A DNA stretch of 64,000 nucleotides from Thermodesulfobacteriota bacterium (GTDB taxonomy: Bacteria > Desulfobacterota > Desulfobacteria > Desulfobacterales > B30-G6), in contig JBDLJD010000002.1 in the NCBI GenBank assembly GCA_039714495.1, positions 268 through 64,267 of the forward strand, in the 5' to 3' direction. The notes under the pieces are model-generated. The model did no database searches and was not told the origin of the DNA. It worked only from the letters and a program-made list of their open reading frames with translations. Each line of letters begins with the position of its first letter. The stretch's first letter is position 1. Made by a program: the position numbers and the translations under genes. Of the stretch, positions 5,164-60,188 are shown in pieces.

Positions 5164-5195
5164 TTGCATGTCCTACAAATAAGCTAAAAGCTCTC

Positions 5196-5280
5196 GTCAC
5201 TCCCGTGAAGACGGGAGTCCAGGATAATCTCCTGGATAGCGCAAAAGCTTCACTTCGTGTCCTGCCTTCGCAGGAATGAC
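5196..5280. repeat. REP-like hairpin cluster (GTCACTCCCGTGAAGACGGGAGTCCAGG; TCCTGCCTTCGCAGGAATGAC)
   Basis: Same hairpin family as 4333-4407, with the second unit in inverted orientation. Confidence 0.7.
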
Positions 5281-5341
5281 AGATGACTAGCAACCCGTAA
5301 TTTAGTCCCCATAATTAATGGTAGAACTACGATACGAACCT

Positions 5342-5593
5342 CTATTGTTGCGTGCCCACGATTTCCCCGCCACAATGTTCACACCGCTTTATCTTTTCGC
5401 TTTGAACCATCCCGCAACGGGTGCACACGGTTCCCTGGATGGGCAGCCGCACGTCATTGGTATCCACAAAGATGCGCTGCAACCCTTCATCATATAAAAA
5501 TCCAATGCGACACTCCGGGCATTTTTGCCTCCCGGGCCTGGGTTCCACCAGGCCGCTGCAAAACGGGCATTCTATGAATTCTTTCTGAGGCAT
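5342..5593 (-). CDS. Small zinc-ribbon protein (hypothetical)
   Basis: 83 aa with four CxxC pairs (CPFC, CPEC, CTRC, CEHC). No family was recognised. Confidence 0.5.
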   Translation of the reverse strand: MPQKEFIECPFCSGLVEPRPGRQKCPECRIGFLYDEGLQRIFVDTNDVRLPIQGTVCTRCGMVQSEKIKRCEHCGGEIVGTQQ

Positions 5594-5771
5594 GGTGTAT
5601 CTTTATACCGGTTGTCATCCATTTACACAAACAGTCTTTACATCTCCTATAAATCATTCTATAAATTTCCACCTCCGGCACTGGTAAAAAAACGCCTGTG
5701 ACGAGGTGGCGGTGCATGTTTGCCGCTTCATTATGGTGGATATATAAACCTATGAAATATGTTGAGTTCAT

Positions 5772-5797
5772 ACCATTCTTAAAATTTGAAACGCTCA
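5772..5797 (+). promoter_or_regulatory. Dispersed motif A copy 1 (ACCATTCTTAAAATTTGAAACGCTCA)
   Basis: This 26-mer recurs at 11079-11104 and 29711-29736 with 24-25/26 identity between copies (23 positions invariant). All copies have the same orientation as the downstream gene. A partial copy lies at 5654-5670. Confidence 0.65.
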
Positions 5798-5827
5798 GTT
5801 TAAGATAATTTCTCAAGTGAGGGTAAT

Positions 5828-10400: not shown

Positions 10401-10628
10401 ATGATGAAAAACATAATTTTAATTGGGGCACTGGCATTGCTCCTAATTGGGTGTAGTCATGCTGAAAAGGAATCAGGGTTTTTGGAGCATAAGACTCTAT
10501 ACAAAAATTGGGATCATGCAAAATATAGTTTGTGGGGTTATCGCAACCCAACCCCTGAAGATTTAAAAAAATCTCAGGAACAGGGATGGTGGGGCTCTGA
10601 GGTGTCCATTGAGCCAGCGGAAGATTAG
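10401..10628 (+). CDS. Small lipoprotein (hypothetical)
   Basis: 75 aa with a lipobox (LLLIGC). AGAGGGAG precedes the start. A hairpin at 10664-10690 follows. Confidence 0.5.
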   Translation: MMKNIILIGALALLLIGCSHAEKESGFLEHKTLYKNWDHAKYSLWGYRNPTPEDLKKSQEQGWWGSEVSIEPAED

Positions 10629-45427: not shown

Positions 45428-46282
45428 CTAATATTCCTTGGGTGTCTTATTGATCTGGTCCAGGGTGAAAACAGGGCCGTCTTTACACACCAGCTCTTTG
45501 CCGATACCGCAGCGGCCGCACATGCCGAACCCGCACTTCATTCTGTTTTCCAGGGACATGATGATGTGGTCATGGGCATATCCCAGTTTTTCCAGAACCG
45601 GAAGGGTGAATTTGATCATGATCGGCGGACCGCAGACAATGGCATAGGTATCGTCGTCACCCTGGGGCGCCTTCTGCTCGGTGATCGGGGGGGTGAACCC
45701 CACGTTGTATTCCCACCCTTCGGACGGGGCGTCGATGGTCAGGTGCATGTTGATGTCATCCCGTTTTTCCCATGCGACCAGTTCATCCTTGTACAGCAGC
45801 ATACCCGGTGTCCGGGCACCGTACACCACATCGATATCCCCGAACCTGGAACGATTTTCCGGATCGAGCATGTAAACGATGGAGGAGCGCAGGGTGGTAA
45901 AGGCAAATCCGCCGCCGACGATGAGGATGTTCTTGCCCTCGAGAAGGTCCCAGGGATACCAGTTGCCCATGGGGCCCCGGATGCCCATGATATCGCCCTC
46001 TTGCATGTTGTGAAGGTGGGAGGTGACGACACCTGCCTTGAAAACGGTGAATTTGACAAAGCCTTTTTCCACGGGCGAAGAGGCAATGCCGATGGGGATT
46101 TCGCCGATGCCGGGAACAGAGAGTTCGGCGAACTGACCGGCCTCATAAGCAAACTTCTCTTCGTCACCATCGTTCAGGAAGACAAATTTAAATGTTTTAA
46201 GACTTTTATCCTCTGTTGCCACCTCGATGTCATCGATGCGAACCGGATAAGGTACATAGGGGTTTAACACGTGATCCTCCAT
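45428..46282 (-). CDS. FAD/NAD(P)-binding, [2Fe-2S] oxidoreductase subunit (AsrB / PyrK / sulfhydrogenase-gamma-like)
   Basis: 284 aa with a ferredoxin-reductase-type FAD and NAD fold (ILIVGGGFAFT) and a C-terminal CGFGMCGRCGIGKELVCKDGP cluster motif. Confidence 0.8.
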   Translation of the reverse strand: MEDHVLNPYVPYPVRIDDIEVATEDKSLKTFKFVFLNDGDEEKFAYEAGQFAELSVPGIGEIPIGIASSPVEKGFVKFTVFKAGVVTSHLHNMQEGDIMGIRGPMGNWYPWDLLEGKNILIVGGGFAFTTLRSSIVYMLDPENRSRFGDIDVVYGARTPGMLLYKDELVAWEKRDDINMHLTIDAPSEGWEYNVGFTPPITEQKAPQGDDDTYAIVCGPPIMIKFTLPVLEKLGYAHDHIIMSLENRMKCGFGMCGRCGIGKELVCKDGPVFTLDQINKTPKEY

Positions 46283-46286
46283 CTAC

Positions 46287-47351
46287 TTATTCATTTACCG
46301 CGCAGGTCGCCTCTGCGGCATTGTAACTGTTCATCAGGTTGCAGACCCTGCGAATGTCGATGTTGACCGGGCATTGACTGACGCAGCGGCCGCACCCGAC
46401 ACACATGATGCCTTTATCGTATTTGTCCACAAAATATTTCAATTTATGCATGAAGCGTTGCCGCACCCGCTGGGTCTTGGTGCCTCTGGGATTGTGTCCG
46501 GTGGTGTGCACAGTGAACAAGGGGAACATGCAGCTGTCCCAGTTTTTCATTCTTTTGCCCGCTTTGCCGTGCACTTCGTCCTGAAGGTCGAAGCACCAGC
46601 AGGTGGGGCAGGTGTAGGTGCATGTACCGCAGTTGAGACAGGCAAAGGCAACATCTTCCCAAAAGGAGGCGCCGTGCAGCTCCATCAGGTCCTGGTTTTT
46701 CAGGTTGTCCATTTCAACGGTGGAGGTGATCTTGGCCTCGGCTGCCTCTTTTCTGGTTTCAATCTCTGCAGCGTCCCCGGCGGGGGTGTCCCAGCCGGCA
46801 GCTTCGGTTAAAGCCTTTCCTTTGTCAGTCAGCACCTTGGCCAGATAGTGGTCGCCGCCCTCTATCAGGAGTACGTCCAGCCCCTCTTCGTTGTAGGGTC
46901 CGCATCCCGTGGAGGTGCAAAAACAGGTGTTTCTGGGTTCGTCGCAGGCCAGTCCGACAAATGTCGTGGCTTCCAGGGCCTTAACCCAGTACGGGTCCTG
47001 GTATTCAGACGTATCGAAGTTCAGGTTCACCAAGGTGACTGCTTTGGCATCACAAGGCCGTATCCCCAGAACCGCCCGGGGAGAGCTGTCCTTCTCAACG
47101 GGTTTCATGATGTGGTGGTCTTCATCATTCTCATCCAGGCTGTATTCGATGATGGTGTCGGATTGCGGGAAAAGAATCGCTTTGGGGGAAAGCCGGGAGT
47201 TGGCAAAACCGAGCTCCGGTTGCTCCCCGGCATCCAGGGATGTAAAGCTGTAGTAATCCTTCTCCTTTGCCGGCCCGAACAGATGGTAGGCTTTCTGGAG
47301 TGCCTCCAGCCCTTTGTCCCACTGCTTTTTGTCGATTTTTACTAACGTCAT
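46287..47351 (-). CDS. 4Fe-4S dicluster subunit (AsrA / sulfhydrogenase-beta-like)
   Basis: 354 aa containing CLNCGTCTYTCPTCWCFD and CVGCGRCVSQCP. It lies 4 nt upstream of the AsrB-like gene. Confidence 0.75.
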   Translation of the reverse strand: MTLVKIDKKQWDKGLEALQKAYHLFGPAKEKDYYSFTSLDAGEQPELGFANSRLSPKAILFPQSDTIIEYSLDENDEDHHIMKPVEKDSSPRAVLGIRPCDAKAVTLVNLNFDTSEYQDPYWVKALEATTFVGLACDEPRNTCFCTSTGCGPYNEEGLDVLLIEGGDHYLAKVLTDKGKALTEAAGWDTPAGDAAEIETRKEAAEAKITSTVEMDNLKNQDLMELHGASFWEDVAFACLNCGTCTYTCPTCWCFDLQDEVHGKAGKRMKNWDSCMFPLFTVHTTGHNPRGTKTQRVRQRFMHKLKYFVDKYDKGIMCVGCGRCVSQCPVNIDIRRVCNLMNSYNAAEATCAVNE

Positions 47352-47370: not shown

Positions 47371-48318
47371 TTAACGTATAAAATCATCCGGATCGTCTGG
47401 ACGGTATGTATCCAGAGGCGGCCTTACATCCAGGGTCAGGCCGGCTTCCCAACCGAACTGTTCAAAACTGTCTTTCTCAAGTTTTTGGGTGAACACCCGC
47501 ATGTTGATGCCCACCGGGCAGGCGCGCTCGCATGCGCCGCAGTCCGTGCACCGTCCTGCACAGTGAAAGGCCCTTAGAAAATGGAAGGTTCTGACATCGG
47601 TCGGGTCCTGCCCTTTGCCGACCCACTGGGGTTTGGATTCGTCCACAAAGCAGGTAGGGCAGTAGCAGAGGGGACAGGCATTCTTGCAGGCATAGCAGCG
47701 GATGCACGGAGAAAGGAGTTCCTCGAAGAAGTTCCACTTATCTTCAGGGTTCAGGGCCTCGATTTTCCGGACATCCTCGTAGCGGTCCACGTCCTTTTGT
47801 TCCTCCACCGGGTCGGTCACCATTTCGTCGAAAATGACCGGGTTGCGGTGGATGCAAACCGCACAGTTTTTCTGCAGGACATCGGCTTTGTCAAGTTCGT
47901 TCGCTTTACCGTCGACAGTTACCGTAATTTTCTGACCGCTTTCGGCCACATCCTGAATCTCACCGTCGAACATGGCATTGATCTTGTGCTTGTCGATCAT
48001 GCCCTGGCAGGGAACACCGATAATGTAAAGCTGTTCCCGGCTGATTTTGTTCTCGATGATATGGGTGACGATGTTGCGCGTATCGCACCCCTTGGCGATG
48101 ATGCCGATCTTTTCCGCGCGGTTGGTCAGGTAATTGGCCAGGTTGATACCGCAGTTGCTGTCCCAGACGAGCTGCGCTGTATCTTCCGCATTGTTGATGA
48201 AGCAGGGTTCGTTCATCATGGGCATGCTCCCCTTGCGGAACCCGATGACCATGTCCACCTGGCACTCCTTGAGCAGCCGGGCGGATATCTCTTTAATCTT
48301 ATCGTTGTATTCTGACAT
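47371..48318 (-). CDS. FrhB/FdhB-like iron-sulfur flavoprotein-type subunit
   Basis: 315 aa with an N-terminal FrhB-like region and C-terminal CIRCYACKNACPLCYCPTC plus CTDCGACERACP. Confidence 0.65.
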   Translation of the reverse strand: MSEYNDKIKEISARLLKECQVDMVIGFRKGSMPMMNEPCFINNAEDTAQLVWDSNCGINLANYLTNRAEKIGIIAKGCDTRNIVTHIIENKISREQLYIIGVPCQGMIDKHKINAMFDGEIQDVAESGQKITVTVDGKANELDKADVLQKNCAVCIHRNPVIFDEMVTDPVEEQKDVDRYEDVRKIEALNPEDKWNFFEELLSPCIRCYACKNACPLCYCPTCFVDESKPQWVGKGQDPTDVRTFHFLRAFHCAGRCTDCGACERACPVGINMRVFTQKLEKDSFEQFGWEAGLTLDVRPPLDTYRPDDPDDFIR

Positions 48319-48319
48319 G

Positions 48320-48751
48320 TTATGCTACCTTGGCCTCGTGCTTGGCAAAATGCGTGTTCGGTCCCAGGGCTCTAACCTTTTCCGTAACTTCCTTGACCAC
48401 CTCCACAAATTTAGTGGATTCGGCCGAAGAGATCCACGAGTAGTGAATCCGGTCCGGTTCGATGCCCATGTGTTCCATGAGGTTTTTAAACAGCGAGAAT
48501 TTCCGACGAGCGTAGTAATTACCTTCCAGGTAATGGCATTCGCCGGGATGTCACCCGGACACCCAGACGCCGTCGGCGCCTTCCCTGAGAGCGGCCATGG
48601 CGAACTTGGGGCTCATGCGGCCGCTGCAGGGGATCCGGATGACCCGGATGTTGGAGGGGTACTCCATCCGGCTGACGCCTGCCAGGTCGGCAGCGCCGTA
48701 GCTGCACCAGTTACAAAGGAAACTGACGATTTTCGGTTCCCATTCTGACAT
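48320..48751 (-). CDS. mvhD: MvhD-type (methyl-viologen-reducing hydrogenase delta / FlpD) protein with in-frame UGA (selenocysteine)
   Basis: [25 protein letters not shown]...[12 protein letters not shown](48551-48553)[18 protein letters not shown]...HEAKVA. The reading frame and family similarity continue for 76 codons after the TGA, which replaces the first Cys of the GGCHxGDCHY motif. The start at 48751 follows AAGGAG; 48775 is an alternative. Confidence 0.8.
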
Positions 48752-48913
48752 TGTTGTAATCTCCTTCTCTGACATTTGATCTGTTTCCGCTGCCGTCCAG
48801 CCGATTGGATCAAACCATTTTATTTACAAAGTCCGAGGATTCTATGATTAGAGTGTTGGTAGCCGATGCGTTTTACTTGAAACCTTGGCCCCGCGACCCC
48901 TTGAATCCTGTAA

Positions 48914-51900
48914 TTAGACCGCTTCGTTCATGGCAAAAATCTGTGCAAAAATCTGGTCGTTGTCAAATCCCTTCAGCTTGATGGCGCCGGAGCGGCAGGA
49001 AGCCACGCAAAGGCCGCAGCCTTTGCACAGGACCGGGTTGATCTTAGCCTTGCCTGTGAATGGACCTTCCTCGATAAATGCCGGTGCCGAATAGGGGCAG
49101 ATGGAAACACACACCGCACATGAGCTGCAGTTCATGGGCACGGTTTCGGCAATGGTTCCGCTGGTGTGGATCGTTTCACGCGCCAGCAGCGTGACCGCTC
49201 TGGATGCCGCCGCTCTTCCCTGGACCACGGACTCGTCTATGGGTTTGGGGTAGTGGGCCAGGCCGCACAGGAACACACCATCGGTGGCAAATTCCGAAGG
49301 ACCGAGCTTGGCGTGCTTTTCCACGAAAAAGCCGTCATCATTCAGTGACACCTTGAAAAAGTTGGCCAGAGCCTCGTCCTTGTTGGGCACCACGGCCGAG
49401 GCCAGGGTAACAAGGTCGGTTGCGATTTCCAACGGCCGCCCCAGCACATGGTCGGTCACCGTAATTTTAATCTCACCGTTGTCCAGGTCAAGCACCGGTT
49501 TATTGTCGACGGCGTAGCGGACAAAAATGATGCCTTTTTCACGGGCTTCCCGGTAGATATACTCGCGTTCACCGTAGGTGCGGATGTCCCGGTATAGAAT
49601 GTAAACGCTCATTTCCGGGTTGGTTTTTTTCAGTTCCAGGGCGTTGTCAATGGAATGCGTGCAGCAGACCTTGGAGCAGTATGGCCGTTCCGGTTCCCTT
49701 GATCCCACGCACTGGATAAAGACTGCCGACTTTAGCTCTTTCAGGGCAGGATCCTTGTCCATGAATTTGCGATCAAGTTCCAGGCTGGTCAGGATACGCG
49801 GGTCGTCTCCATAGTGATACTCCCGGGGCTTGAGAGCTGAGGCACCGGTGGCCACGACAGCCACGCCGTGTTCCAGTTCCGTTTCCTTACCGTCAGCAGC
49901 CAGCGTAGCCTTGAAGCTGCCCACAAAGCCTTCAACGTTTTTAAGCTCAGTACTCAGGTGCACATGGATATTTTCATTCTGGTCGACATCGGCGATGAGA
50001 TGGGACAGTTTTTCCTGAACATCGTCGCCCGAAATCGTTCTGAACAGGTTGAGGGCCTGACCACCCAGTGCATCGCTTTTTTCCACGATGTGGGTTTCAT
50101 ACCCATGTTGGGCCAGGGTCGAGGCCGCACTCATGCCGGCGATGCCGCCGCCGATGATCATGGCGGTTTGGTTGACTTGCAGTTCCGCTTCCTCCAAGGG
50201 CTGCATGAGCGCCACCTTGGAGACGGCCATACGTACCAGGTCTTTGGCTTTTTCCGTGGCCATGTCTGGGTTGTTTTTGTGGACCCAGGAGTCTTGGTTA
50301 CGGATGTTGCACATCTCGAAAAGGTATTTGTTGAGCCCTGCATTGATCAAGGTTTCCTGAAACAAAGGTTCGTGGGTTTTCGGTGTACAAGCCGCCACCA
50401 CCACCCGGTTCAGGTTTTTCTGCTTGATGATCTGGGTCATGGTCTCCTGGGTGTCCTGGGCACAGGAGTATAGATTGTCCGAAAAATATTCCACATAGGG
50501 CAGGGTTGCTGCATAATCACGGACGGCCGGTACATCCACCACACCGGCGATGTTGATGCCGCAGCGGCAGACGAACACGCCGATACGGGGGCGTTCGCCG
50601 AAAACGTTGGTTTCCGGAACAACTTCGGGGGTCAGGGTTCGGGTGTTGCGGGCCGCGCTCAGCACTGCGCCTGCGCTGCCGGCTGCTGCACTGGCGTCGA
50701 TGACCGATTGGGGGATATCCTTGGGGCCCTGAAAGGCGCCGCAAACATAGATACCCTTTTGGGATGTTTCCACCGGCTCGAAGGTCTCTGTTTTACAGAA
50801 ATTGCCCTCGGTCAGCTCAATGTCCAGCTTTTTGGCCAGGGCTACGGTTTCAGGGTTGGTCTGCAGGCCGATGGAGAGGACGACCTGGTCGAATGTTTCG
50901 TTTTGCAGTTCGCCCGACTCCGTGACATAGCGTACCGACAGGTCATCGGATCCGGCTACCGGGTCAATGGTGTGCACCCGGCTGCGCACGAAGCGCACGC
51001 CCTTTTCCTGGGCATTGTTGTAGAAGCGTTCAAAATCTTTGCCATGGGTGCGCATGTCCATGTAAAATATGGTACACTCCAGATCATCGCCGGCATGTTC
51101 CTTGGCGATGACGGATTCCTTAATGGCATACATGCAGCAGACCGAAGAACAATAGGAATTGTCGCACCGGTTGAGATCCCGGGAGCCCACGCATTGAAAC
51201 CAGGCGATCTTTTTGGGTTCCTTGTGATCGGATGGGCGCACCAGATGACCCCCTGTAGGGCCTGATGCCGACAGGATCCGCTCCATCTCCATGGAGGTGA
51301 TCACGTTCGGGTGGTTGGCATAGTTGTAGGAATCGAATTTGGACGGGTCAAAGGGCTCAAATCCGGGGGCCAGAATGATGGATCCCACTTCGAGCTCCAC
51401 AATCTCGTCTTCCATGGTGTGGTCAATGGCGTCAACCCCGCAGAATTCCGTACAGACCTTGCAGCCGCCTGTTTTGAAATGCACACAGACATCCCGGTCA
51501 ATGGCCGGGGTGTTGGGCACGGCCTGGGCATAGGGCACATAAACCGGCTTTCTGCCATTGAGGCCCATGTCGTATTCGCTGGGAATCGGCTGGACATCCT
51601 TGTGGCGGGTGATTATTTCGTTGATCTTTTCAAGGGTGATGTGACCGGTGGGGCAGACCGAGGCGCAGGCGCCGCAGGCCATGCAGACATCGCTCTGGAG
51701 GTGATAAGGCGTGTCCACCTTCATCTCCACCCCCCTGCCGGTGAGGCTGATGGCGCTGTTGCCCATGCGTTCGCACATGCGTACGCACAGTCCACAAAGA
51801 ATGCAGTCGTCGCCCTCGGTTTTGAAGCGCGGTTTTTCTATGCCGTACTCTTTAGCAAGCTTTTTCAGCATGGGGACGTCGGGGCACCTCGCCAGGAGCA

Positions 51901-52171
51901 GTTCCACGATCAGCTTGCGCCCCTGGTGAACCGCTTCGGAATCGGTGGTGATCTCCATACCCTCCCAGATGGGGTAGTTGCAGGCGGTTACGAACCGGCT
52001 CCTGCGGCCGTCAAAAAGCTCTACCGTGCAGAGGCGGCACATACCGGCCGGCTCCAGTGCCTTGTGGTGGCACATGGTCGGGATATCGACACCGTATTTT
52101 TCAGCGACCTGAAGGATGTATTGCCCTTCTTCGCCTTGAACTGTTTTGCCGTTGAGCTTAAACGTGATCAT
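48914..52171 (-). CDS. 1085-aa fusion of three parts: a NuoG/FdhA-type N-terminus ([2Fe-2S] + 2x[4Fe-4S]), the C-terminal part of an HdrA FAD domain, and a complete second HdrA-like unit
   Basis: Residues 1-190 are MITFKLNGK...CHHKALEPAGMCRLC...CILCGLCVRMC...CMACGACASVCP. Then come the HdrA-like GSIILAPGF...WFQCVGSRD...YCSSVCCMYAIKE...CGAFQGPKDI. The second unit is IGVFVCRCGINIAG...IIGGGIAGMSAA...FIQCVGSRE...CSKVCCTHS...CSSCAVCVSICP...CKGCGLCVASC. Confidence 0.85.
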   Translation of the reverse strand: MITFKLNGKTVQGEEGQYILQVAEKYGVDIPTMCHHKALEPAGMCRLCTVELFDGRRSRFVTACNYPIWEGMEITTDSEAVHQGRKLIVELLLARCPDVPMLKKLAKEYGIEKPRFKTEGDDCILCGLCVRMCERMGNSAISLTGRGVEMKVDTPYHLQSDVCMACGACASVCPTGHITLEKINEIITRHKDVQPIPSEYDMGLNGRKPVYVPYAQAVPNTPAIDRDVCVHFKTGGCKVCTEFCGVDAIDHTMEDEIVELEVGSIILAPGFEPFDPSKFDSYNYANHPNVITSMEMERILSASGPTGGHLVRPSDHKEPKKIAWFQCVGSRDLNRCDNSYCSSVCCMYAIKESVIAKEHAGDDLECTIFYMDMRTHGKDFERFYNNAQEKGVRFVRSRVHTIDPVAGSDDLSVRYVTESGELQNETFDQVVLSIGLQTNPETVALAKKLDIELTEGNFCKTETFEPVETSQKGIYVCGAFQGPKDIPQSVIDASAAAGSAGAVLSAARNTRTLTPEVVPETNVFGERPRIGVFVCRCGINIAGVVDVPAVRDYAATLPYVEYFSDNLYSCAQDTQETMTQIIKQKNLNRVVVAACTPKTHEPLFQETLINAGLNKYLFEMCNIRNQDSWVHKNNPDMATEKAKDLVRMAVSKVALMQPLEEAELQVNQTAMIIGGGIAGMSAASTLAQHGYETHIVEKSDALGGQALNLFRTISGDDVQEKLSHLIADVDQNENIHVHLSTELKNVEGFVGSFKATLAADGKETELEHGVAVVATGASALKPREYHYGDDPRILTSLELDRKFMDKDPALKELKSAVFIQCVGSREPERPYCSKVCCTHSIDNALELKKTNPEMSVYILYRDIRTYGEREYIYREAREKGIIFVRYAVDNKPVLDLDNGEIKITVTDHVLGRPLEIATDLVTLASAVVPNKDEALANFFKVSLNDDGFFVEKHAKLGPSEFATDGVFLCGLAHYPKPIDESVVQGRAAASRAVTLLARETIHTSGTIAETVPMNCSSCAVCVSICPYSAPAFIEEGPFTGKAKINPVLCKGCGLCVASCRSGAIKLKGFDNDQIFAQIFAMNEAV

Positions 52172-52192: not shown

Positions 52193-54124
52193 TTAGCAAA
52201 TAGCAATTGCATTGAATTTACACGCGTCGTAGCAGATGCTGCACTTGATGCAGAGTTCCTGGTCCAGGGTGTGCGGCTTTTTCTTGTCGCCGCTGATGGC
52301 GTCCTGCGGGCATTTGCGGGCACAGACGTGACAGCCGTTACAGGCTTCGGCATCGATTTCATAATGGAAAAGGGCCTTGCAGACGCCTGCCGGACATTTT
52401 TTGTCCCTGATGTGCGCTTCATACTCGTCCCGAAAATAAAGAATCGTTGTCAGGACCGGATTCGGAGCTGAGGTTCCCAGACCGCACAGGGAGAACTTCT
52501 GAATCATACTGCCCAACTCTTCCAGAAGTTCGATGTCCCCTTCCTTACCGTTGCCGGCGCAGATATCGGTCAGGATATCCAGAACCTGCTTTATGCCTTC
52601 ACGGCAGGGGTTGCACTGCCCGCAGGACTCCTCCTTGAGGAAATCCATGAAGTAGCGGGCCACATCCACCATGCAAGTATCCTGGTCCATGGCAATCATG
52701 CCACCGGAGCCCATGATGGAACCTACTTCGGCCAGTTTCTGATAGTCCACCGGCAGGTCCATGAAGCGTTCGGGGATGCACCCGCCCGACGGGCCGCCGG
52801 TCTGAATCGCCTTGAATCGTTTCTTTTTGGGAATACCTCCGCCGATGGTGAATGCGATTTCCTTCAGGGAAATGCCCATGGGTACTTCCACCAAGCCGGT
52901 GTTCTTGATCTTGCCCACCAGGCTGAAGACCTTGGTGCCCTTGCTGTGGTCCGTGCCCATGCCGGCATACCACTCGGCGCCTTGGAGCACGATGGCGGGA
53001 ACGTTGGCATAGGTTTCCACATTGTTGAGGTTCGTGGGGCCTTCGCGGAACCCTTTTTCCACAGTGTGCACGTACTTGGCTCTGGGGCGGCCGACATTGC
53101 CTTCCAGGGAGGCCATCAAAGCGGTGGATTCACCGCAGACAAAAGCTCCGGCCCCGGTGGAAATCTTGATGTTGAAACTGTAGTCCGTACCGGCGATGTT
53201 GTCTCCCAAAAGGCCGCAGGCTTCGGCCTGCTTTATGGCGGTTACCAGCCGTTTGACCGCCAGGGGATACTCGTTGCGCACATAAATGTAACCCTGGCGG
53301 GAACCGATGGCATAGCCGGCGATCAGCATGCCCTCCAGCACGCTGTGCGGGTCTCCTTCCAGGATGCTCCTGTCCATGTAGGCGCCCGGGTCCCCTTCAT
53401 CCGCGTTGCAGATGATGTACCGGTCGCCGTCGTGTTTGGCACAGGTAGCCCACTTGATGCCGGTGGGGAACCCGCCGCCGCCCCGGCCCCTCAAGCCCGA
53501 TGCCTTGATGGTTTCCAGGATTTTTCCCGGTTCCGAGTGCTCGAGCATCTGTAGCAACGCCCGGTAGCCCTTTTTGGCAATGTATTCTTCGATGCAGTCC
53601 GGGTCGATATACCCGCAGTTGCGCAAGGCGATTTTTACCTGACCTTTATAAAAAGGTATGTCTTCCAAGAATGGGATGGCTTCAAAGGGTTCGACCTTGC
53701 CCATAGGATTGTCAATCTCCGCTTCCAGAATGGACCGGGGATCGCGCATTTGGCCGAGGATCCATTTTTTCTTGGAGAGGCCGTTTTGGTAGTCGTCAAC
53801 CGCGTCCAGAATTTTGTCCGGAGTAATGTTTTTATACATCACCCTGGGGCGGCCGTTGGTCAGGATTTCGACCAGGGGCTCCATTTCGCAGTATCCGATG
53901 CATCCCGTCTGGCTGACCTGGATCGCCCTGTCCGCTGCGAAAGCTTCAGCAGCGGTTTTGAATGCCGCTTCGGCGCCGGCGGCAATACCACAGGAGGCCA
54001 TGCCGATGTTCACTTTTATGGAATCCGGGTAGTAAAGGCTGGTGCTGTATTCCCGGGTAATCTTTTCTAAGTCTTTTACAGACTGGATTTTCATGATTTT
54101 AGCCTCTTCAACGTCTTTATTCAT
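52193..54124 (-). CDS. NuoF/HydB/HndC-like NAD(P)H-binding FMN iron-sulfur flavoprotein
   Basis: 643 aa. It has an N-terminal thioredoxin-like [2Fe-2S] region, the NuoF core (GRGGGGFPTGIKW, NADEGDPGA, ESCGQCNPCREG) and a C-terminal 2x[4Fe-4S]. Confidence 0.9.
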   Translation of the reverse strand: MNKDVEEAKIMKIQSVKDLEKITREYSTSLYYPDSIKVNIGMASCGIAAGAEAAFKTAAEAFAADRAIQVSQTGCIGYCEMEPLVEILTNGRPRVMYKNITPDKILDAVDDYQNGLSKKKWILGQMRDPRSILEAEIDNPMGKVEPFEAIPFLEDIPFYKGQVKIALRNCGYIDPDCIEEYIAKKGYRALLQMLEHSEPGKILETIKASGLRGRGGGGFPTGIKWATCAKHDGDRYIICNADEGDPGAYMDRSILEGDPHSVLEGMLIAGYAIGSRQGYIYVRNEYPLAVKRLVTAIKQAEACGLLGDNIAGTDYSFNIKISTGAGAFVCGESTALMASLEGNVGRPRAKYVHTVEKGFREGPTNLNNVETYANVPAIVLQGAEWYAGMGTDHSKGTKVFSLVGKIKNTGLVEVPMGISLKEIAFTIGGGIPKKKRFKAIQTGGPSGGCIPERFMDLPVDYQKLAEVGSIMGSGGMIAMDQDTCMVDVARYFMDFLKEESCGQCNPCREGIKQVLDILTDICAGNGKEGDIELLEELGSMIQKFSLCGLGTSAPNPVLTTILYFRDEYEAHIRDKKCPAGVCKALFHYEIDAEACNGCHVCARKCPQDAISGDKKKPHTLDQELCIKCSICYDACKFNAIAIC

Positions 54125-54620
54125 ATTGGTCTAAAATGCGGTCTATTTCGTCGGATGCGATGCGGCCGTGCATGTCTTCGTTGATTTTCACGACCGGCCC
54201 CAGGCTGCAGCAGCCGATACAGCGCACGGATTCCAGGGTGAAGCGCTGGTCTTCCGTGGTCTGGCCATCGTTGATCTCCAGGTTTTCCTGGATGCGTTCC
54301 CGTACCCTCTCGCCGCCGCGCACGTGGCAGGCGGTGCCGAGGCAGATGGAAATGATGTTGCGCCCCCTGGGTTCCAGGCTGAAGGTGCTGTAGAAGGTGG
54401 CCACACCGTATATTTTGCTGTAGGGAATGCCGATTTTGGCGGAAAGATAGTTCAGCGCCGGTTGGGGTAGATAATTGTACTTGCGCTGTATGGCCTGAAG
54501 GATCATGATCAGATTTTCTTTGTTGTTGCCGAATTCATCCTCGATAATGGTGTCGAGTTCCATAAAATCGACTTCTGTTTCAATATGTTGATCGCTTTCC
54601 AGCGGAATAGCTTGGTTCAT
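54117..54620 (-). CDS. NuoE/HndA-like thioredoxin-fold [2Fe-2S] subunit
   Basis: 167 aa containing ICLGTACHVRGG and VRCIGCCSLGPVV. It overlaps the NuoF-like start by 8 nt. Confidence 0.9.
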   Translation of the reverse strand: MNQAIPLESDQHIETEVDFMELDTIIEDEFGNNKENLIMILQAIQRKYNYLPQPALNYLSAKIGIPYSKIYGVATFYSTFSLEPRGRNIISICLGTACHVRGGERVRERIQENLEINDGQTTEDQRFTLESVRCIGCCSLGPVVKINEDMHGRIASDEIDRILDQYE

Positions 54621-54676: not shown

Positions 54677-55063
54677 TCAGCAATTTGCGGGCAATTGCAC
54701 CACAGGGCAGTTCTCCACGCAGGCGCCGCATCCGGTGCAGAGATCCATGTTGATGCTTCGGGCGCGCTTTTTAACTTTTACTTTAAAATTGCCTGATTCG
54801 CCTTCGACAGATTCAAGATCTGCATATGTGATAAGCTCGATGTTCAGATGCCGGCCGACCTCGACCAGTACAGGGGAAATAATTCACATCGCGCAGTCAT
54901 TGGTGGGAAAGGTCTTGTCCAGTTGCGACATGACGCCACCTATGGAGGGGGATTTCTCAAGAAGGTAAACATAGTACCCGGAATTTGCCAGGTCGAGCGC
55001 GGACTGCATTCCGGCGATACCACCACCGACAACCAGTACCGAACCGATTACATCCTTTGCCAT
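54677..55063 (-). CDS. 128-aa stand-alone HdrA N-terminal fragment with in-frame UGA (selenocysteine)
   Basis: ATG at 55063 follows AGGAGA. The product is [62 protein letters not shown](54884-54886)[68 protein letters not shown]. Stop TGA is at 54677-54679. I translated the 68 post-UGA codons by hand and found no other stop. Confidence 0.75.
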
Positions 55064-55147
55064 TGTGTTTCTCCTGATAAAAATTATGTAAAAACAAATA
55101 GATAAATTGATTTCCATTTGCAGGCCCTGTCGAAGGACCAAGGAATG

Positions 55148-55225: not shown

Positions 55226-55269
55226 AAAACTAGAACAGCCTGACCGGTTGGTCAGGCTGTTCTAGTTTT
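55226..55269 (-). terminator. Strong rho-independent terminator after the double-receiver gene
   Basis: Perfect 20-bp stem AAAACTAGAACAGCCTGACC-GGTT-GGTCAGGCTGTTCTAGTTTT with T-runs on both strands. Confidence 0.8.
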
Positions 55270-55290: not shown

Positions 55291-56955
55291 TTAAGCAGCT
55301 AAGTGGAGCGCCTTCTCCGTGGCATTGCGAATTTCATCCGGCGTAAACGGCTTGGGCAGGTAATCGACGGCGCCCATGCGCGTGGCCTCCACAGCAGTCT
55401 CGATACTGGCGTAGCCGGTGATCATGATGACCTTGGCTTCGGGATTGTTGTCCCGGATGGCCTGGAGGAGTTCAAGCCCTTGCACCCCCGGTATCTTGAG
55501 ATCCAGCAGGATCAGCTTGTAGGGATGGGCCGCGATTCTTTCGAGGGCTTCTTCCTTGGTCACGGCCTGGTCCACCTGATAGTCATTTTTAACCAGAATT
55601 TTACGGATATTGTTGTTGACCGCCACCTCGTCATCGATGACCAGAATGTTTTTGTGCACTGATTCCTTGGGGAATTCGTAAACATGGGCAGTGGGGGCGT
55701 CCTGCTCGGCCATCATGCGGGCGACATTCTGCTTCAGGGTTTCATAAGGGACCTGCACGATACCGTCATAAACCAGGTTTTCCACATAGGCAGTGCCGGT
55801 CACGGCCATAACTTCTTCGTAATTAAAGGGTTGGTCGATACCGATCAGCTTTTTGACATCATGGGTTTTTTGGGCCTTGGCCGCACGCTTTTTCTTAGCC
55901 AGTTGGGGGCACTTCTGGGTCTTGGTTCCAGCCTTGCAGGTGGCGCCCAGTTTTTTGAAGATGTCGCATACCATACTGCCCATCTCGCAGAAGCCTTCCA
56001 ACTGTTCCGATGCAGTGATTTCGATTACGGGCATGTCGGAGGACCCCAGGCTCTTGGCGTATTCTTCTCCGGTTACCTCGGCCACTTCATCACGGTCAAA
56101 GGGGATGTCCACGTCAATGGGTTTGCTTTCCAGAAAGCCGGCCACATTCTTTTTCAATTCCTCGTAGGGTATGTAGGACACGCCTTCATTCTGCATGGCG
56201 TAAACGTACTCGGGGCCGGTCACGGCCGCAACTTCCTCGTAATCAAAGGGCTGGTCAATGCCCACCAGCTTCTTGACGTCCGGCGTCTTCTTGGCCTTGG
56301 CAGCTCTTTTTTTCTTGGCCAGTTGGGGGCACTTCTGGGTCTTGTTGCCGGCCTTGCAGGTGGCGCCCAGCTTTTTGAAGATGTCGCACACCATGCTGCC
56401 CATTTCGCAGAAGCCTTCCAGGGGTTCCAAGGCCTTGACCTCGATGATGGGCATGCCGGAGGGCCCCAGGCTTTTGGCGTATTCCTCGCCGGTTACTTCG
56501 GCCACTTCGTCGGCATCAAAGGGCAGGTCAATGTCGATGGCGTTGATAGCTTCCCGCTCCTCTTTGCTAGTGGGGGCCTCATTGAGCTCGCCGTCCAGCG
56601 CCTTTTCTACCGTGTTGCGCAACTCATCCGGGGTAAACGGTTTTGGGATATAATCCAGGGCGCCCATCTTGATTGCCTTGACGGCCGTGTCCGTGGAGGC
56701 ATAGGCGGTCATCATCACAGCTTTGGTCAGGGGCCACTGCTCTTTGACCAGTTTGAGAAGTTCGAGCCCGTTTTTCCCGGGCATGACAATGTCTGAGATC
56801 AGCAGGGAAAAGGAATCCAAGGCCATTTTTTCCAGGGCCTCGTCTGCGCTCTCCGCGTGTACCACCTCATAGTTGCCTTTCTTGAGGATTTTTTCCACGT
56901 TGCTGCAGATGCTCTTTTCATCATCGACCACGATAATTTTCTGGGCTGCTTCCAT
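55291..56955 (-). CDS. Double receiver-domain protein with a central tandem 140-aa Cys4/Lys-rich repeat
   Basis: 554 aa. REC domains lie at both ends (IIVVDDE...ISDIVMPG...MMTAY...KPF and ILVIDDE...LLDLKIPG...MITGY...KPF). Between them are two about 85%-identical copies of IDxDxPFDxDEVAEVTGEEYAKSLG...EGFCEMGSMVCDIFKKLGATCKAGxKTQKCPQLAKKKRAAKAxKT...IDQPFxYEEVxAVTG. The DNA period is 420 nt (for example 55901 versus 56321). Confidence 0.85.
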   Translation of the reverse strand: MEAAQKIIVVDDEKSICSNVEKILKKGNYEVVHAESADEALEKMALDSFSLLISDIVMPGKNGLELLKLVKEQWPLTKAVMMTAYASTDTAVKAIKMGALDYIPKPFTPDELRNTVEKALDGELNEAPTSKEEREAINAIDIDLPFDADEVAEVTGEEYAKSLGPSGMPIIEVKALEPLEGFCEMGSMVCDIFKKLGATCKAGNKTQKCPQLAKKKRAAKAKKTPDVKKLVGIDQPFDYEEVAAVTGPEYVYAMQNEGVSYIPYEELKKNVAGFLESKPIDVDIPFDRDEVAEVTGEEYAKSLGSSDMPVIEITASEQLEGFCEMGSMVCDIFKKLGATCKAGTKTQKCPQLAKKKRAAKAQKTHDVKKLIGIDQPFNYEEVMAVTGTAYVENLVYDGIVQVPYETLKQNVARMMAEQDAPTAHVYEFPKESVHKNILVIDDEVAVNNNIRKILVKNDYQVDQAVTKEEALERIAAHPYKLILLDLKIPGVQGLELLQAIRDNNPEAKVIMITGYASIETAVEATRMGAVDYLPKPFTPDEIRNATEKALHLAA

Positions 56956-57331: not shown

Positions 57332-58759
57332 TCATTTGTTGGGCAGGCGGATGCCGTGCTTTTTCATGAGGCTTTGAAAATTGGTACGCTGCAGGCCTGT
57401 CTTTTCGGCGGCGTGGGTCACGTTCCAATCGTTTTTGATCAGGGCATTGAGCAGAAAGTTCTTTTCCACCTTCTGAACGGCTTTCCGGCGAATATCCTTT
57501 TTAACCTGTTTGAGCTCTGCATTGGTCGCGGGCGTTGCCTCCACAAGGTTATCCAGATCGCCAATTTCTCCCAGCAGGGGGAGGTCCTGGGTGTCGATGG
57601 TGTCCTGATCGCAAAGAATGACAGCGCGTTCGATGACATTACGCAGTTGCCTGACGTTTCCCGGCCAGTCAAAGGAAAGCAGGCGTCCGGCAGCACTGTC
57701 CACTATGCCGGTTATCGATTTGTCCATGTCGCGGCTGAACTGCTTGATAAAATGGTAGGCAATGGGCAGAATATCCATTCTACGTTCACGCAGGGGTGGC
57801 AGCATGATGGGATAGACAAAGATGCGGTAATAGAAATCCTGACGGAAGGAGCCTTCGTTGACCATGGTTTCCAGATTGGTATTGGTGGCGAAGATCAGGC
57901 GCAGGTCCACCTTTTTAGGGGACGTGCCGCCCAGAGGCAGAAACTCACGCGTCTCCAGGAATCTGAGAAGTTTGCCCTGGACCGCCAGGCTGATATTGCT
58001 GATTTCGTCTAAAAACACCGTACCGCTGTCGGCCAGGGACAATATGCCTTCCTTGCTTTTATGTGCACTGGTAAACGCGCCTTTAACATGGCCGAACAGT
58101 TCGCTTTCCAACCGGTTTCCTGCGAGTGTGCCGCAATCAACGGCAAAAAAGACATTCGTGTTGCGCCGACTGTTGGCATGCACGGCTCTGGCGATGAGTT
58201 CCTTGCCGGTGCCGCTTTCACCGTACACCAGAACGGTGGAGTCGGTGGGGGCCACTTTTCCCACCATGGAGATGACTTTCTGAATCTTGGGGCTGCTTCC
58301 GATGAGCTGATGCGATGTCGTTCTTTTTGGGGTGGGACGGGACATCAGCTCCTGGTTCTGCCGCTGCATCTCTTTTTCGCTTAGCGCCTGGAAAACCACG
58401 GCGCGCAATTCATGGGGAGTAAAGGGTTTGGGCAGGTAGTCAAAGGCGCCCATCTTCATTACTTCCACGGCCGAGGCGACACTGGCATAACCGGTAATAA
58501 CCACTACGCGCGTGTCAGGGTAGGTGTCTTTTACCCGGCTCAAAAGTTCCATGCCGCCCAGGCGGCTCATCTTGAGGTCGGTGACAATGACGTCGGACGG
58601 ATCATCCTCCATCAGCTTCAGGGCATCGTACCCATTGAGGGCGTAACGGACGTCGTAATCTTGTTTGGAAAGAATCTTGACGCAACTCTGGCAGATGTTG
58701 TGCTCATCGTCCACAACGAGGACTTTAGGTACACGCTTTACATTGGGCTCAGGCGTCAT
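57332..58759 (-). CDS. NtrC-family sigma54-dependent response regulator (REC + AAA+ + Fis-type HTH)
   Basis: The start is taken at ATG 58759 (MTPEPNVKRVPKVLVVDDE). The product has GESGTGKE, the GAFTSA (GAFTGA-like) sigma54 contact loop, and a C-terminal HTH (WNVTHAAEKTGLQRTNFQSLMKKHGI). The longer ORF back to 59050 runs inside the kinase gene. Confidence 0.9.
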   Translation of the reverse strand: MTPEPNVKRVPKVLVVDDEHNICQSCVKILSKQDYDVRYALNGYDALKLMEDDPSDVIVTDLKMSRLGGMELLSRVKDTYPDTRVVVITGYASVASAVEVMKMGAFDYLPKPFTPHELRAVVFQALSEKEMQRQNQELMSRPTPKRTTSHQLIGSSPKIQKVISMVGKVAPTDSTVLVYGESGTGKELIARAVHANSRRNTNVFFAVDCGTLAGNRLESELFGHVKGAFTSAHKSKEGILSLADSGTVFLDEISNISLAVQGKLLRFLETREFLPLGGTSPKKVDLRLIFATNTNLETMVNEGSFRQDFYYRIFVYPIMLPPLRERRMDILPIAYHFIKQFSRDMDKSITGIVDSAAGRLLSFDWPGNVRQLRNVIERAVILCDQDTIDTQDLPLLGEIGDLDNLVEATPATNAELKQVKKDIRRKAVQKVEKNFLLNALIKNDWNVTHAAEKTGLQRTNFQSLMKKHGIRLPNK

Positions 58760-60188
58760 TTGTTTTAGCCGTTTCCAATGGTATCTTGATAATGAAGGAC
58801 GTTCCCTGGTGTTCCCTTCTTGTTGCCTTGATGGTCCCGCCGTGCTGCTCGATGATGCCGTGGGTGATGGCAAGGCCCAGCCCGGTACCCTCTTCCTTGG
58901 TGGTAAAGAAAGGGTCGAATATCTTGTCAAAGATTTCTTCTGGAACGCCTTCTCCGTTGTCACTGACGGAAATTTCCACCGCGCGGCGGCGGGCGCCCAA
59001 GGATGTACGCAGGACGATGCTGCCCCCGGCCTGGGTGGATTCGATGGCATTGAGGATGAGATTGATCAGGACCTGCTGTATCTGGCCTTTGTCCAGGTGC
59101 AGCGGCGGCAGGTTTGAGGTCAGGTCCTTGCGGACGTCTATATCCTTGAAGGCTGCCTGCTTCTGGGTCAGAAGGACGCTTGCGATGATGATGGCGTTGA
59201 TGTCATTGGCCTTTTTATTGGGCCTGGTCTGCCGGGCGAAATCCAGAAGGCTGGTGACGATTTTCCTGCAGCGCAGGGTTTCCTTGGCAATGGTTTCCAG
59301 CTCCGCATGCATAGGGTCATCCGGATCGATGTCTTCCTGCAGAAGCATGGAGGTTGTCAGGATTGTGGTGAGGGGGTTGTTGATTTCATGGGCCACCCCG
59401 GCGGAAAGCCGGCCTACGGAAGCCAGCTTTTCCTGCTGCATCATTGTCTTCTGGATATTGATTTCATCGGAGATGTCCCGGGATATTTCCACGACGCCGA
59501 CAATGTCACCCCCTTCGATCAGGGGATAGGTGGAAATGGAATAGTAAATCTCATTATCGTCCTGGTCCAGATGAACATGGGTTGTCTGGGACGGTTGGAT
59601 GGTCTCCAGGGTCTTTATGAGAGGGCAGGGATGTTTTTCACCGGTGCAGGGAAAAGACTGGCGGTGGGTTATTTCGTAGCAATACCGGCCGACCACTTCC
59701 TCCTTTTTTAGGCCCAGATTGTTCAACACAGTGTTGTTGACATCGATGATGCGATAGTCGTGGCCGATGACCAGCACTTCTTCCTGAATGAGCTCGTTGA
59801 TCATGGTTTTGTAAAGTGCCTTGGCTTCCTGGAGCTCCTGGCTGGTCTTCTTCTGCTTGGTGGACACCCGGGCGAATTCCCAGAACAACTGGGCGGTCTT
59901 GGTGGATATGGCCCTTACGCTGGGCTTCTTTTTCTTAAGGATGTCGTTGTAGACGTCCATACTGCTGGTGAGTTCGATGATCAAGTCGATGCCGGCCATG
60001 GAGAAGAAATCATTGTAATTGGGGGTGGTGAAAATGCCCTTTTCCTTGGCCATCACAAAACCGGGCGCCTTTTTATTGATATCTGCGACCGCAACGATCT
60101 TCGGATGGATTTCCTTAAACGTGTGCTGCGGGATAAGGAGCAGCAGTTGGGTACAGCGGGTGCCCCCACCGACGACAGCGATATTCAT
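58749..60188 (-). CDS. Cytoplasmic sensor histidine kinase: Rossmann-like N-domain + Cys-rich PAS + HisKA/HATPase
   Basis: 479 aa with no TM segments. The N-terminus is MNIAVVGGGTRCTQLL...KIVAVADIN. The PAS region has CYEITHRQSFPCTGEKHPCP. The H-box is SAGVAHEINNP, and the N and G boxes are LNAIEST and GTGLGL. It overlaps the regulator start by 11 nt. Confidence 0.85.
   Translation of the reverse strand: MNIAVVGGGTRCTQLLLLIPQHTFKEIHPKIVAVADINKKAPGFVMAKEKGIFTTPNYNDFFSMAGIDLIIELTSSMDVYNDILKKKKPSVRAISTKTAQLFWEFARVSTKQKKTSQELQEAKALYKTMINELIQEEVLVIGHDYRIIDVNNTVLNNLGLKKEEVVGRYCYEITHRQSFPCTGEKHPCPLIKTLETIQPSQTTHVHLDQDDNEIYYSISTYPLIEGGDIVGVVEISRDISDEINIQKTMMQQEKLASVGRLSAGVAHEINNPLTTILTTSMLLQEDIDPDDPMHAELETIAKETLRCRKIVTSLLDFARQTRPNKKANDINAIIIASVLLTQKQAAFKDIDVRKDLTSNLPPLHLDKGQIQQVLINLILNAIESTQAGGSIVLRTSLGARRRAVEISVSDNGEGVPEEIFDKIFDPFFTTKEEGTGLGLAITHGIIEQHGGTIKATRREHQGTSFIIKIPLETAKTNDA

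Follow-up and report, generated by a model that had tools for sequence, protein, structure and literature searches.

In the window, a stretch of 64,000 nucleotides from the Thermodesulfobacteriota bacterium assembly GCA_039714495.1 (contig JBDLJD010000002.1, positions 268 to 64,267), a small open reading frame (ORF) on the reverse strand precedes nuoE- and nuoF-like genes and a gene for a 1085-residue fusion protein. The small ORF is very probably a functional subunit carrying selenocysteine (Sec), which supplies the first ~120 residues of module 1 of a double ('pseudo-dimeric') HdrA. The wider reading of the locus, for and against which we see about equal weight, is that a bfuC-bfuB-bfuA cassette is nested in the inserted ferredoxin domain of a tandem hdrA. 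The flavin adenine dinucleotide (FAD) site and two [4Fe-4S] clusters would then lie across a subunit interface, with Sec in the small subunit, and two bifurcating machineries would be hard-wired through the low-potential arm of HdrA. On the same reading this chassis would be widespread across phyla, the fragment being free in Desulfobacterota or fused to NuoE in Planctomycetota and Bipolaricaulota, and the partners (Flx-like, HdrBC, NiFe hydrogenase) would be interchangeable.

The features of the small gene, with positions in the window, were as follows.

54677..55063, reverse strand: predicted small selenoprotein gene, 128 codons plus stop (translation, HdrA match).
54884..54886, reverse strand: in-frame TGA, read as Sec codon 60 (translation; Cys in homologues).
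55070..55075, reverse strand: AGGAGA, Shine-Dalgarno-like, 6 nt before the ATG at 55063 (sequence read).
55010..55027, reverse strand: GGGIAG dinucleotide-binding motif, residues 13-18 (motif scan).
54704..54739, reverse strand: CxxCxxCxxxCP, first motif of the inserted ferredoxin domain, residues 109-120 (alignment and motif scan).

The initial annotation had described the ORF as holding the FAD-binding start of HdrA and stopping soon after CxxCxxCxxxCP, and coordinates and motifs were as claimed, the ORF ending 8 residues past that motif. The AGGAGA and the uninterrupted frame of 68 sense codons after the TGA, both claimed as well, were likewise read in place. When solved structures were searched, residues 8-122 matched residues 145-258 of 5odc_A, the HdrA of Methanothermococcus thermolithotrophicus (E 1e-42), and residues 142-256 of 8rvv_A were matched at 6e-47, a likeness to HdrA that is far beyond chance. 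FPTNDC57-A-M-U60 aligned with the Cys194/Cys197 pair of the solved HdrA, with Sec60 at the position of Cys197 in the methanogen protein. By these matches the small ORF appears to be the N-terminal segment of the thioredoxin-reductase (TrxR)-like module 1 of HdrA; its predicted content is the FAD-binding beta-alpha-beta unit, the Cys57/Sec60 pair, a beta-meander and the first half of the inserted ferredoxin domain.

The missing remainder was found in the fusion protein, which was divided as follows.

48914..52171, reverse strand: 1085-residue ORF, BfuA~HdrA~HdrA (ORF list, structure search).
51617..52171, reverse strand: minimal BfuA/NuoG-N domain, residues 1-185 (Fer2_4, Fer4_7; 9mqx_A).
50612..51601, reverse strand: rest of HdrA module 1, residues 191-520 (alignment and motif scan).
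48914..50611, reverse strand: HdrA module 2, residues 521-1085 (alignment and motif scan).

The 1085-residue protein matched solved HdrA chains at E 3e-157. From residue 196 it reads IPSEYDMGLNGRKPVYVPYAQAVP, and residues 195-400 corresponded to 5odc_A 259-458 (9e-57), residues 526-758 to 2-235 and residues 893-1081 to 461-649. In the remainder of module 1 lie the inserted ferredoxin domain's second Cys motif (C229-x7-C237-x2-C240-x3-C244), the cluster motif of the TrxR domain (C327...CC346), THGKD (375-379) and the C-terminal FAD motif GAFQGPKD (478-485). The THGKD sequence aligned with a Lys-containing stretch of 5odc_A, and by analogy with Lys280 as described for BamE (bioRxiv 10.64898/2026.04.10.717634) its Lys may be the one near flavin N5. 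Module 2 holds an N-terminal cluster domain (526-660, with RIGVFVCRCG at 529-538), its own GGGIAG (674-679) and a C-terminal 2x[4Fe-4S] ferredoxin domain (1015-1059); both of these cluster domains occur in module 2 only, which is without the Cys pair and without the inserted ferredoxin domain. Since the small ORF ends at HdrA position 258 and the large protein resumes at 259, module 1 continues where the small ORF stops. A motif scan found a single GxGxxG in the whole 1085-residue protein, that at 674-679, and the FAD-binding start of module 1, which lacks one, would therefore be supplied by the small ORF only. The inserted ferredoxin domain is likewise spread over the two chains, with the first motif (C109-C119) in the small ORF and the second in the large protein. 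That the two pieces complement each other into one HdrA, as had been proposed from the letters alone, was thus borne out by alignment, which confirmed, at the level of sequence, that the small ORF encodes the missing first ~120 residues of HdrA module 1.

Related loci were collected in a scan of one genome per species, comprising 473 relatives, of which the best 80 loci were kept. They came from Desulfobacterales, Desulfatiglandales, Desulfonema limicola, Desulfocicer vacuolatum, Desulfobacterium sp. N47, Desulfatitalea, Desulfosarcina and Desulfatibacillum, and the closest of them, L007 from a Desulfobacterales metagenome-assembled genome, was 98% identical, by which the window falls into that order. 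A protein search also returned stand-alone homologues of 120-150 residues in more than 120 clusters at 70-89% identity. All 80 loci carried the TGA at the same codon followed by an open frame, stop-free over 60 codons, and in all of them the ORF had a total length of 126-138 codons and ended 5-18 residues after the CP motif. The HdrA parts were on two genes with nuoE and nuoF between them in 80 of 80, so that HdrA was not found there as one polypeptide, and the gene order small-nuoE-nuoF-[BfuA~HdrA~HdrA]-mvhD-p315-p354-p284 was present in every locus with enough downstream DNA. Nei-Gojobori estimates from 600 random pairs of the 80 loci gave, upstream of the TGA, a synonymous divergence (pS) of 0.70 and a nonsynonymous divergence (pN) of 0.040 (pN/pS 0.057), and downstream of it a pS of 0.67 and a pN of 0.096 (pN/pS 0.143). 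Strong purifying selection thus acts on the small ORF on both sides of the TGA.

These data bear on the explanation that a rearrangement left the small ORF behind as a decaying pseudogene, or that it is an artefact of assembly. The ORF is short, has a stop codon within it and stands apart from the other part of hdrA, and one related locus, L101, shows a decayed nuoE/nuoF region. The 80 independent assemblies, from different species, nevertheless keep the ORF intact, in place and under purifying selection, and thousands of fusion-type relatives exist in other phyla; the explanation is already refuted and retains next to no probability. Among the orthologues none was degenerate, with frameshifts or a loss of conservation past the UGA, and all 80 were intact. 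The earlier argument that the fragment is not decayed was upheld by the TGA with an intact frame in 80 of 80 loci, by the purifying selection, by an invariant hairpin of the type of a Sec insertion sequence (SECIS) and by Cys in the homologues.

In the locus L101 itself (JGI2171J19970_10000397, 4986-5814) the Sec-type small ORF was intact; between it and the fusion gene only a stub of the beginning of nuoE and ~100 residues from the end of nuoF were left. This deletion variant may be a decaying copy or an assembly problem.

The signals for decoding the TGA, together with a second in-frame TGA of the same operon, were located as follows.

54851..54868, reverse strand: SECIS-type hairpin CUGGUCG-AGGU-CGGCCGG, with a 7-bp stem and an AGGU loop, 15 nt past the UGA (fold, -10.2 kcal/mol).
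48320..48775, reverse strand: mvhD/flxD-like gene (VhuD model, 1.8e-43).
48551..48553, reverse strand: in-frame TGA of the mvhD-like gene, GVWVSG-U-HPGECHY (translation).

Translation might end at the UGA of the small ORF, giving a 59-residue peptide or none, with the last 68 codons not made into protein. Termination is the default meaning of the codon, and within the window neither genes of the Sec machinery nor a tRNA-Sec were found; an Rfam scan of the window at gathering thresholds returned one tRNA only, with no SECIS family match and thus none at this site. Such a reading is highly improbable in view of the stop-free frame and the low pN/pS past the UGA given above. Furthermore, the homologues carry Cys at the column of the UGA, which is the known Sec/Cys197 site of HdrA; the stand-alone homologues that were read had Cys there, apart from a few with W, where a gene caller had mistranslated the UGA. 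At codon positions +6 to +11 past the TGA (L V E V G R) a single codon per position occurred in all 80 species, against ~1-2.4 bits of synonymous entropy for each of the remaining degenerate codons of the ORF, and these six nucleotide-invariant codons form the SECIS-type hairpin 15 nt past the UGA. The identical hairpin folded in nearly all of the 80 loci, and its position shortly past the UGA and its apical loop with G/U fit a bacterial SECIS element. The second TGA also argues against termination, as it lies in the same operon at the known Sec site of VhuD/MvhD. Gene callers split the mvhD-like gene into ORFs of 74 and 52 residues; it would be the second selenoprotein gene of the operon. A selB gene adjoins the related loci L004 and L088, which are from other organisms. 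The small ORF is accordingly best read as a functional selenoprotein gene, the expression of which we infer from selection.

A different placement of Sec was seen in L089 (JGI Ga0307929_1000966), where the large fusion has an in-frame TGA at 10442-10444 within the cluster motif of its N-domain (VFVCH-TGA-GINIGG, normally CxCG). This operon is of the Cys type, its small subunit having Cys at the '197' site, and Sec seems to move between residues surrounding the same cluster when L089 is compared with the Sec-type operons. Gene callers reported the L089 fusion as two proteins of ~530 residues. A three-way split of this locus (532 + 533 residues) was considered and dropped, the 'stop' being an in-frame TGA at a conserved Cys and the product one Sec-containing fusion.

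The genes between the two hdrA parts were the following.

54117..54620, reverse strand: nuoE-like gene, BfuC/HydC-type [2Fe-2S] subunit, 167 residues (PF01257; 7t2r_C).
52193..54124, reverse strand: nuoF-like gene, BfuB/HydB-type flavin mononucleotide/NAD(H) subunit, 643 residues (Pfam; 7t2r_B).

The best match of the NuoE-like protein was subunit C of NiFe-Bfu (7t2r_C, 4e-44; 8a6t_C, 7e-43). In the Pfam search the NuoF core of the NuoF-like protein was flanked by a Trx-like [2Fe-2S] part at the N-terminus and a 2x[4Fe-4S] domain at the C-terminus; 7t2r_B matched residues 47-641, C-terminal domain included (3e-215), and NuoF of complex I matched the core only, at 1e-107 and about half that score. 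In the 1085-residue protein, residues 17-179 matched WorA/BfuA 9mqx_A (1.5e-41), and this N-terminal region also matched the N-termini of HydA and NuoG. Its BfuA-type part consists of a [2Fe-2S] domain and two [4Fe-4S] motifs, C123-C133 and C163-P174, and residues 1-180 thus carry the clusters that define BfuA ([2Fe-2S] and at least two [4Fe-4S]: A1, A2, A4). The three 'nuo' parts are hence a BfuCBA module in the sense of the classification in PMC9304861, and not parts of complex I.

NuoE fell into two classes, ~45% and ~75% identical to that of the window, among operons that were otherwise orthologous, with small ORFs ~90% and fusions ~75-90% identical. The ~45% class included L009, L012, L015, L021, L022 and L025 and the other class L008, L010 and L013; in the former, nuoF matches began mostly at residues ~41-70, with few near 8-12. 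This pattern suggests that the bfuC/bfuB genes have been exchanged inside the operon.

Related genomes contained the split form (80 of 80 loci) and also unsplit counterparts, namely HdrL and tandem HdrA. The tandem HdrAs of L004, L006 and L088, of ~1015-1033 residues, were ~42-55% identical over the two HdrA parts, and their N-termini, contiguous with the rest, were 59-66% identical to the small ORF. The nearest unsplit relative was HdrL (L006, 1478 residues), the residues 1-126 of which were 67% identical to the small ORF and the later two parts 62% and 66% identical to the large protein; it is followed by the same tail genes, mvhD-p316-p346-p280. In HdrL an in-frame NAD(P)H module of GltD/NfnB-like type occupies the same ferredoxin domain, ~30 residues further on (PMC2702500, PMC9012536). 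Fused forms were found in a metagenome scan, and for two of them (L170, L171) 10-kb flanks were read. The fragment was fused in frame to NuoE in L119, L121, L134, L147 and L163, and fusions, of 292-303 residues in the first four loci below, were located as follows.

L119, 4968-5879: fragment~NuoE fusion.
L121, 4971-5855: fragment~NuoE fusion.
L170, 10001-10882: fragment~NuoE fusion.
L171, 10001-10879: fragment~NuoE fusion.
L165, 397-1695: ORF with HdrA N-domain, fragment and NuoE.

In L165 a single ORF of 432 residues joins the N-terminal domain of HdrA, the fragment as far as its first Cys motif, and NuoE. NuoF lies downstream, and beyond it tblastn matched the BfuA domain and the beginning of what remains of HdrA. 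The fragment~NuoE family gave 3798 hits at E<=1e-40, annotated as NuoE, in Planctomycetota, Bipolaricaulota and others. In L170 and L171 the order was fusion, a 127-residue protein, NuoF, small regulators and a protein of 1083 or 1081 residues with a BfuA N-terminus and the HdrA continuation (RPILSEFDAELTGRPSIYIAYQQAIP) without the fragment; this BfuA~HdrA partner lay 3-5 kb downstream of the fusion. L119 and L121 had been taken for fragment~NuoE genes without an HdrA partner, which was discarded after the longer flanks of the related L170 and L171 showed one. The partner modules varied with lineage: the window has a Flx-like NAD(P)H module, L170 has HdrC/HdrB and L171 has MvhD with a NiFe hydrogenase; Rnf genes were neighbours of the L170 locus.

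As both cut ends of hdrA can be joined to cassette ends, the fusions, which are the strongest evidence on the origin, point to a physical association of the fragment with the complex and to insertion of the cassette. The initial annotation had proposed that a nuoE-nuoF-nuoG(N) cassette was inserted into an ancestral hdrA within its inserted ferredoxin domain. The unsplit relatives and the fusions at both cut ends speak for the insertion, and two parts of the claim were revised: the ancestor would have been of tandem HdrA/HdrL type rather than a simple hdrA, and the inserted genes are of the bifurcating HydBC/Bfu type rather than from complex I. Comparison of the loci thus supports the view that the gene was split by a bfuC-bfuB-bfuA cassette lying within the inserted ferredoxin domain of an ancestor of tandem hdrA/hdrL type.

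Several observations weigh against the combined interpretation of a nested cassette and a two-chain HdrA. The hairpin nucleotides are invariant among the 80 species and so offer no covariation in support of a SECIS element. The assembly from two chains is something we infer only, the proposed electron path follows from the position of the fusion only and differs from the path in class II benzoyl-CoA reductase, the only Bfu-HdrA complex that has been solved, and the operon is without a high-potential acceptor module. Finally, fragment-type genes of the Cys type (~128-132 residues) lie directly upstream of complete tandem hdrA genes, 33-96 nt before them, where no complement is needed.

L004, 10001-10387: 'extra' fragment gene.
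L006, 10001-10399: 'extra' fragment gene.
L088, 6001-6390: 'extra' fragment gene.
L104, ~3241: probable 'extra' fragment gene.

The same context was seen in L005 (with L004), and the L004 gene lies in a metVF/hdr cluster. The 'extra' fragments were 75-76% identical to the small ORF and had the same C-terminal end; they may be duplicates, or have partners encoded elsewhere. Because such homologues precede complete tandem hdrA genes, the small protein could be read as an autonomous Fe-S/flavin-binding or redox (Cys/Sec) subunit that does not fold with residues 191-520. This is improbable, though somewhat less so than termination at the UGA: the neighbouring protein lacks exactly this segment and the GxGxxG of module 1 in the window and in all 80 Sec-type loci, and in the fusion lineages a partner without the fragment always appears when the DNA read is long enough. 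A protein made of half a Rossmann FAD domain and half a 2x[4Fe-4S] fold would, moreover, be unlikely to be stable alone, and the 'extra' context was rare among 80 metagenome loci for which such a protein had served as the query. The small ORF as the missing start of module 1 hence remains the preferred reading.

If so, one FAD domain would be folded from the small subunit together with residues 191-520 of the large chain. By the ligand pattern of 2x[4Fe-4S] ferredoxins, C109/C112/C115 with C244 would hold one [4Fe-4S] cluster and C229/C237/C240 with C119 the other, and both clusters of the inserted domain would bridge the two chains. Cys57/Sec60 would adjoin the N-domain cluster of module 2. 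The Bfu module, using NADH and ferredoxin, would exchange electrons with the HdrA flavin through the inserted ferredoxin domain, a wiring proposed because BfuA ends ~20 residues before the HdrA continuation and because the NAD(P)H module of HdrL sits in the same domain. The products p284, p354 and p315 would form a sulfhydrogenase gamma/beta- or Flx-like module (PMC4759654). The net reaction is most likely a bifurcation or confurcation coupling NAD(P)H, NADH and ferredoxin, which is a guess since no HdrBC-type acceptor is encoded in the operon.

Seven further genes on the same strand, close or overlapping, follow the small ORF. The last three of them, and features of the upstream region, were as follows.

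47371..48318, reverse strand: 315-residue Fe-S protein, FlxC-like in position, kept in the operon (domain search, synteny).
46287..47351, reverse strand: 354-residue Fe-S protein, sulfhydrogenase beta/AsrA/FlxB-like (9nez_B, 1e-37).
45428..46282, reverse strand: 284-residue FAD/NAD(P)H/[2Fe-2S] protein, sulfhydrogenase gamma/AsrB/FlxA-like, last gene of the operon (9nez_C, 5.5e-51).
55226..55269, reverse strand: inverted repeat of 20 bp, without mismatch, with a loop of 4 nt and A/T runs on both sides (sequence read).
57332-59050: sigma-54 activator, upstream neighbourhood.
58749-60188: PAS histidine kinase, upstream neighbourhood.

No CCG-domain protein (HdrB/HdrC) was found among the eight operon genes. 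Membership in class II benzoyl-CoA reductase was rejected, as BamB (AOR-type tungsten enzyme), BamC and BamD were missing among them. The inverted repeat, which stands between the small ORF and the upstream regulator gene and is followed by a T-run, is likely the terminator of that gene, possibly a bidirectional one, and the operon would start a separate transcription unit. A promoter scan upstream of the small ORF gave no convincing sigma-70 site; by eye, TTGACA-N15/17-TATACA/TACATA could be read there, and no sigma-54 site of the form GG-N10-GC was seen; sigma-54 activators are encoded in the neighbourhood. Just upstream of the operon, positions 55291-56955 of the reverse strand encode a 554-residue protein with a receiver domain at each end and, between these, a Cys- and Lys-rich internal tandem duplication of ~170 residues (EGFCEMGSMVCDIFKKLGATCKAG.KTQKCPQLAKKKRAAKA), for which no Pfam match was found.

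All parts of the system belong to known families (HdrA, Bfu, MvhD and Flx/sulfhydrogenase beta-gamma). The HdrA of methanogens (HdrABC-MvhAGD; 5ODC, 8RVU/8RVV, 7BKB) likewise has the FAD domain, the Cys194/Cys197 pair, the inserted ferredoxin domain, the cluster of the TrxR domain, the N-terminal cluster domain and a ferredoxin domain at the C-terminus, with ~50-60% of positions identical in aligned stretches as estimated from printed alignments, and its Cys197 is Sec in some methanogens. Unlike that HdrA, which is a homodimer working with HdrBC, the system in the window has two chains, two non-identical modules and an operon without HdrBC. In HdrA, Cys197 is a ligand to the N-domain cluster of the partner molecule, and the losses of Cys197 and of the N-domain in tandem HdrAs are complementary (PMC9012536); in those of anaerobic methanotrophic archaea (ANME; HdrA3/4) and Moorella thermoacetica (PMC9012536), and in the tandem HdrAs of L004, L006 and L088, one module has the Cys pair and inserted ferredoxin domain without an N-domain, and the other the N-domain with a C-terminal ferredoxin domain but no Cys pair. 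With the Cys pair and no N-domain in module 1, and the N-domain and no Cys pair in module 2, the present system fits this pattern. The tandem HdrAs are, however, single chains, whereas here module 1 is cut after the first Cys motif of its inserted ferredoxin domain, with the Bfu cassette at the cut. As described, the HdrA3/4 fusions of ANME have the N-domain module first (PMC9012536), opposite to the order in the 1085-residue protein; the tandem HdrAs of L004, L006 and L088 have the same order as the latter. An NAD(P)H module inside the inserted ferredoxin domain is also known from HdrL of Desulfobacterium autotrophicum (PMC2702500) and from the NfnB-like insertion of ANME-1 HdrA9-11 (PMC9012536), but the HdrL gene stays whole, with its GltD/NfnB-like part in frame, while here three Bfu components are involved, two of them as separate genes.

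Class II benzoyl-CoA reductase (BamBCDEFGHI; PMC9304861) likewise joins a Bfu module, a tandem HdrA and a Sec-containing MvhD-like protein, BamF. BamE is a fused HdrA dimer linked to the BamGHI (Bfu) module; BamI feeds the C-terminal ferredoxin domain and BamF, and the Cys59/Cys62 pair of BamE adjoins cluster E3 (bioRxiv 10.64898/2026.04.10.717634). Sec60 of the small ORF resembles Cys62 of BamE by position only (Cys57/Sec60 versus Cys59/Cys62). In the published description BamE starts with its first TrxR module, within one subunit and with no mention of a split, and BamI forms a subunit of its own, unlike BfuA, which is here covalently fused beside the inserted ferredoxin domain; BamB/C (the tungsten enzyme) and BamD (HdrBC-like) have no counterpart in the operon of the window. 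In the Bfu family (NiFe-Bfu 7T2R, WorABCSL 9MQX, NfnABC/Stn 8OH5; PMC9304861, PMC12318220) BfuB and BfuC found full-length matches, and BfuA corresponded to the minimal WorA type. Among the types listed in the main text of the 2022 classification (PMC9304861), none combines a BfuA fused to an HdrA remainder with a BfuC that follows, or is fused to, an HdrA fragment. A clustering of nuoEFG with mvhD/hdrA was described in Desulfotignum phosphitoxidans (PMC4046663).

The mvhD, p315, p354 and p284 genes share the composition of FlxD, FlxC, FlxB and FlxA, a likeness in domain content only. FlxABCD-HdrABC of Desulfovibrio was reportedly described by Ramos et al. in 2015 (cited in PMC4759654); unlike that system, the operon studied here is without HdrB/HdrC, has a Bfu module added and has an HdrA that is both tandem and split. 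A full-text literature search, in which one relevant review was not covered, found no description of a module 1 split by a nested bfuCBA, of a free Sec fragment or of the fragment~NuoE family, and the split layout seems not to have been described before.

To our knowledge, HdrA-type and Bfu (HydBC)-type enzymes are two of the four known ways to split electron pairs to very low potentials, and class II benzoyl-CoA reductase is the only studied enzyme that combines them. The present locus would be a second, apparently undescribed way of joining HdrA and Bfu, at a different point of HdrA, with a flavin domain and a ferredoxin domain each naturally divided over two chains; the layout is kept in many sulfate reducers and the fused form occurs in other phyla. 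In gene calls the small gene is cut short at the UGA or named 'FAD-dependent oxidoreductase' or 'HdrA family', and genome papers have probably taken the large protein for NuoG, judging from clusters in PMC4046663. With its genes truncated or mislabelled, the complex is easily missed in metabolic reconstructions of Desulfobacterota. A selenoprotein subunit of ~14 kDa, inter-subunit clusters and electron entry or exit via the inserted ferredoxin domain are predicted, and the locus would be of interest for electron bifurcation and for the energy metabolism of sulfate reducers.

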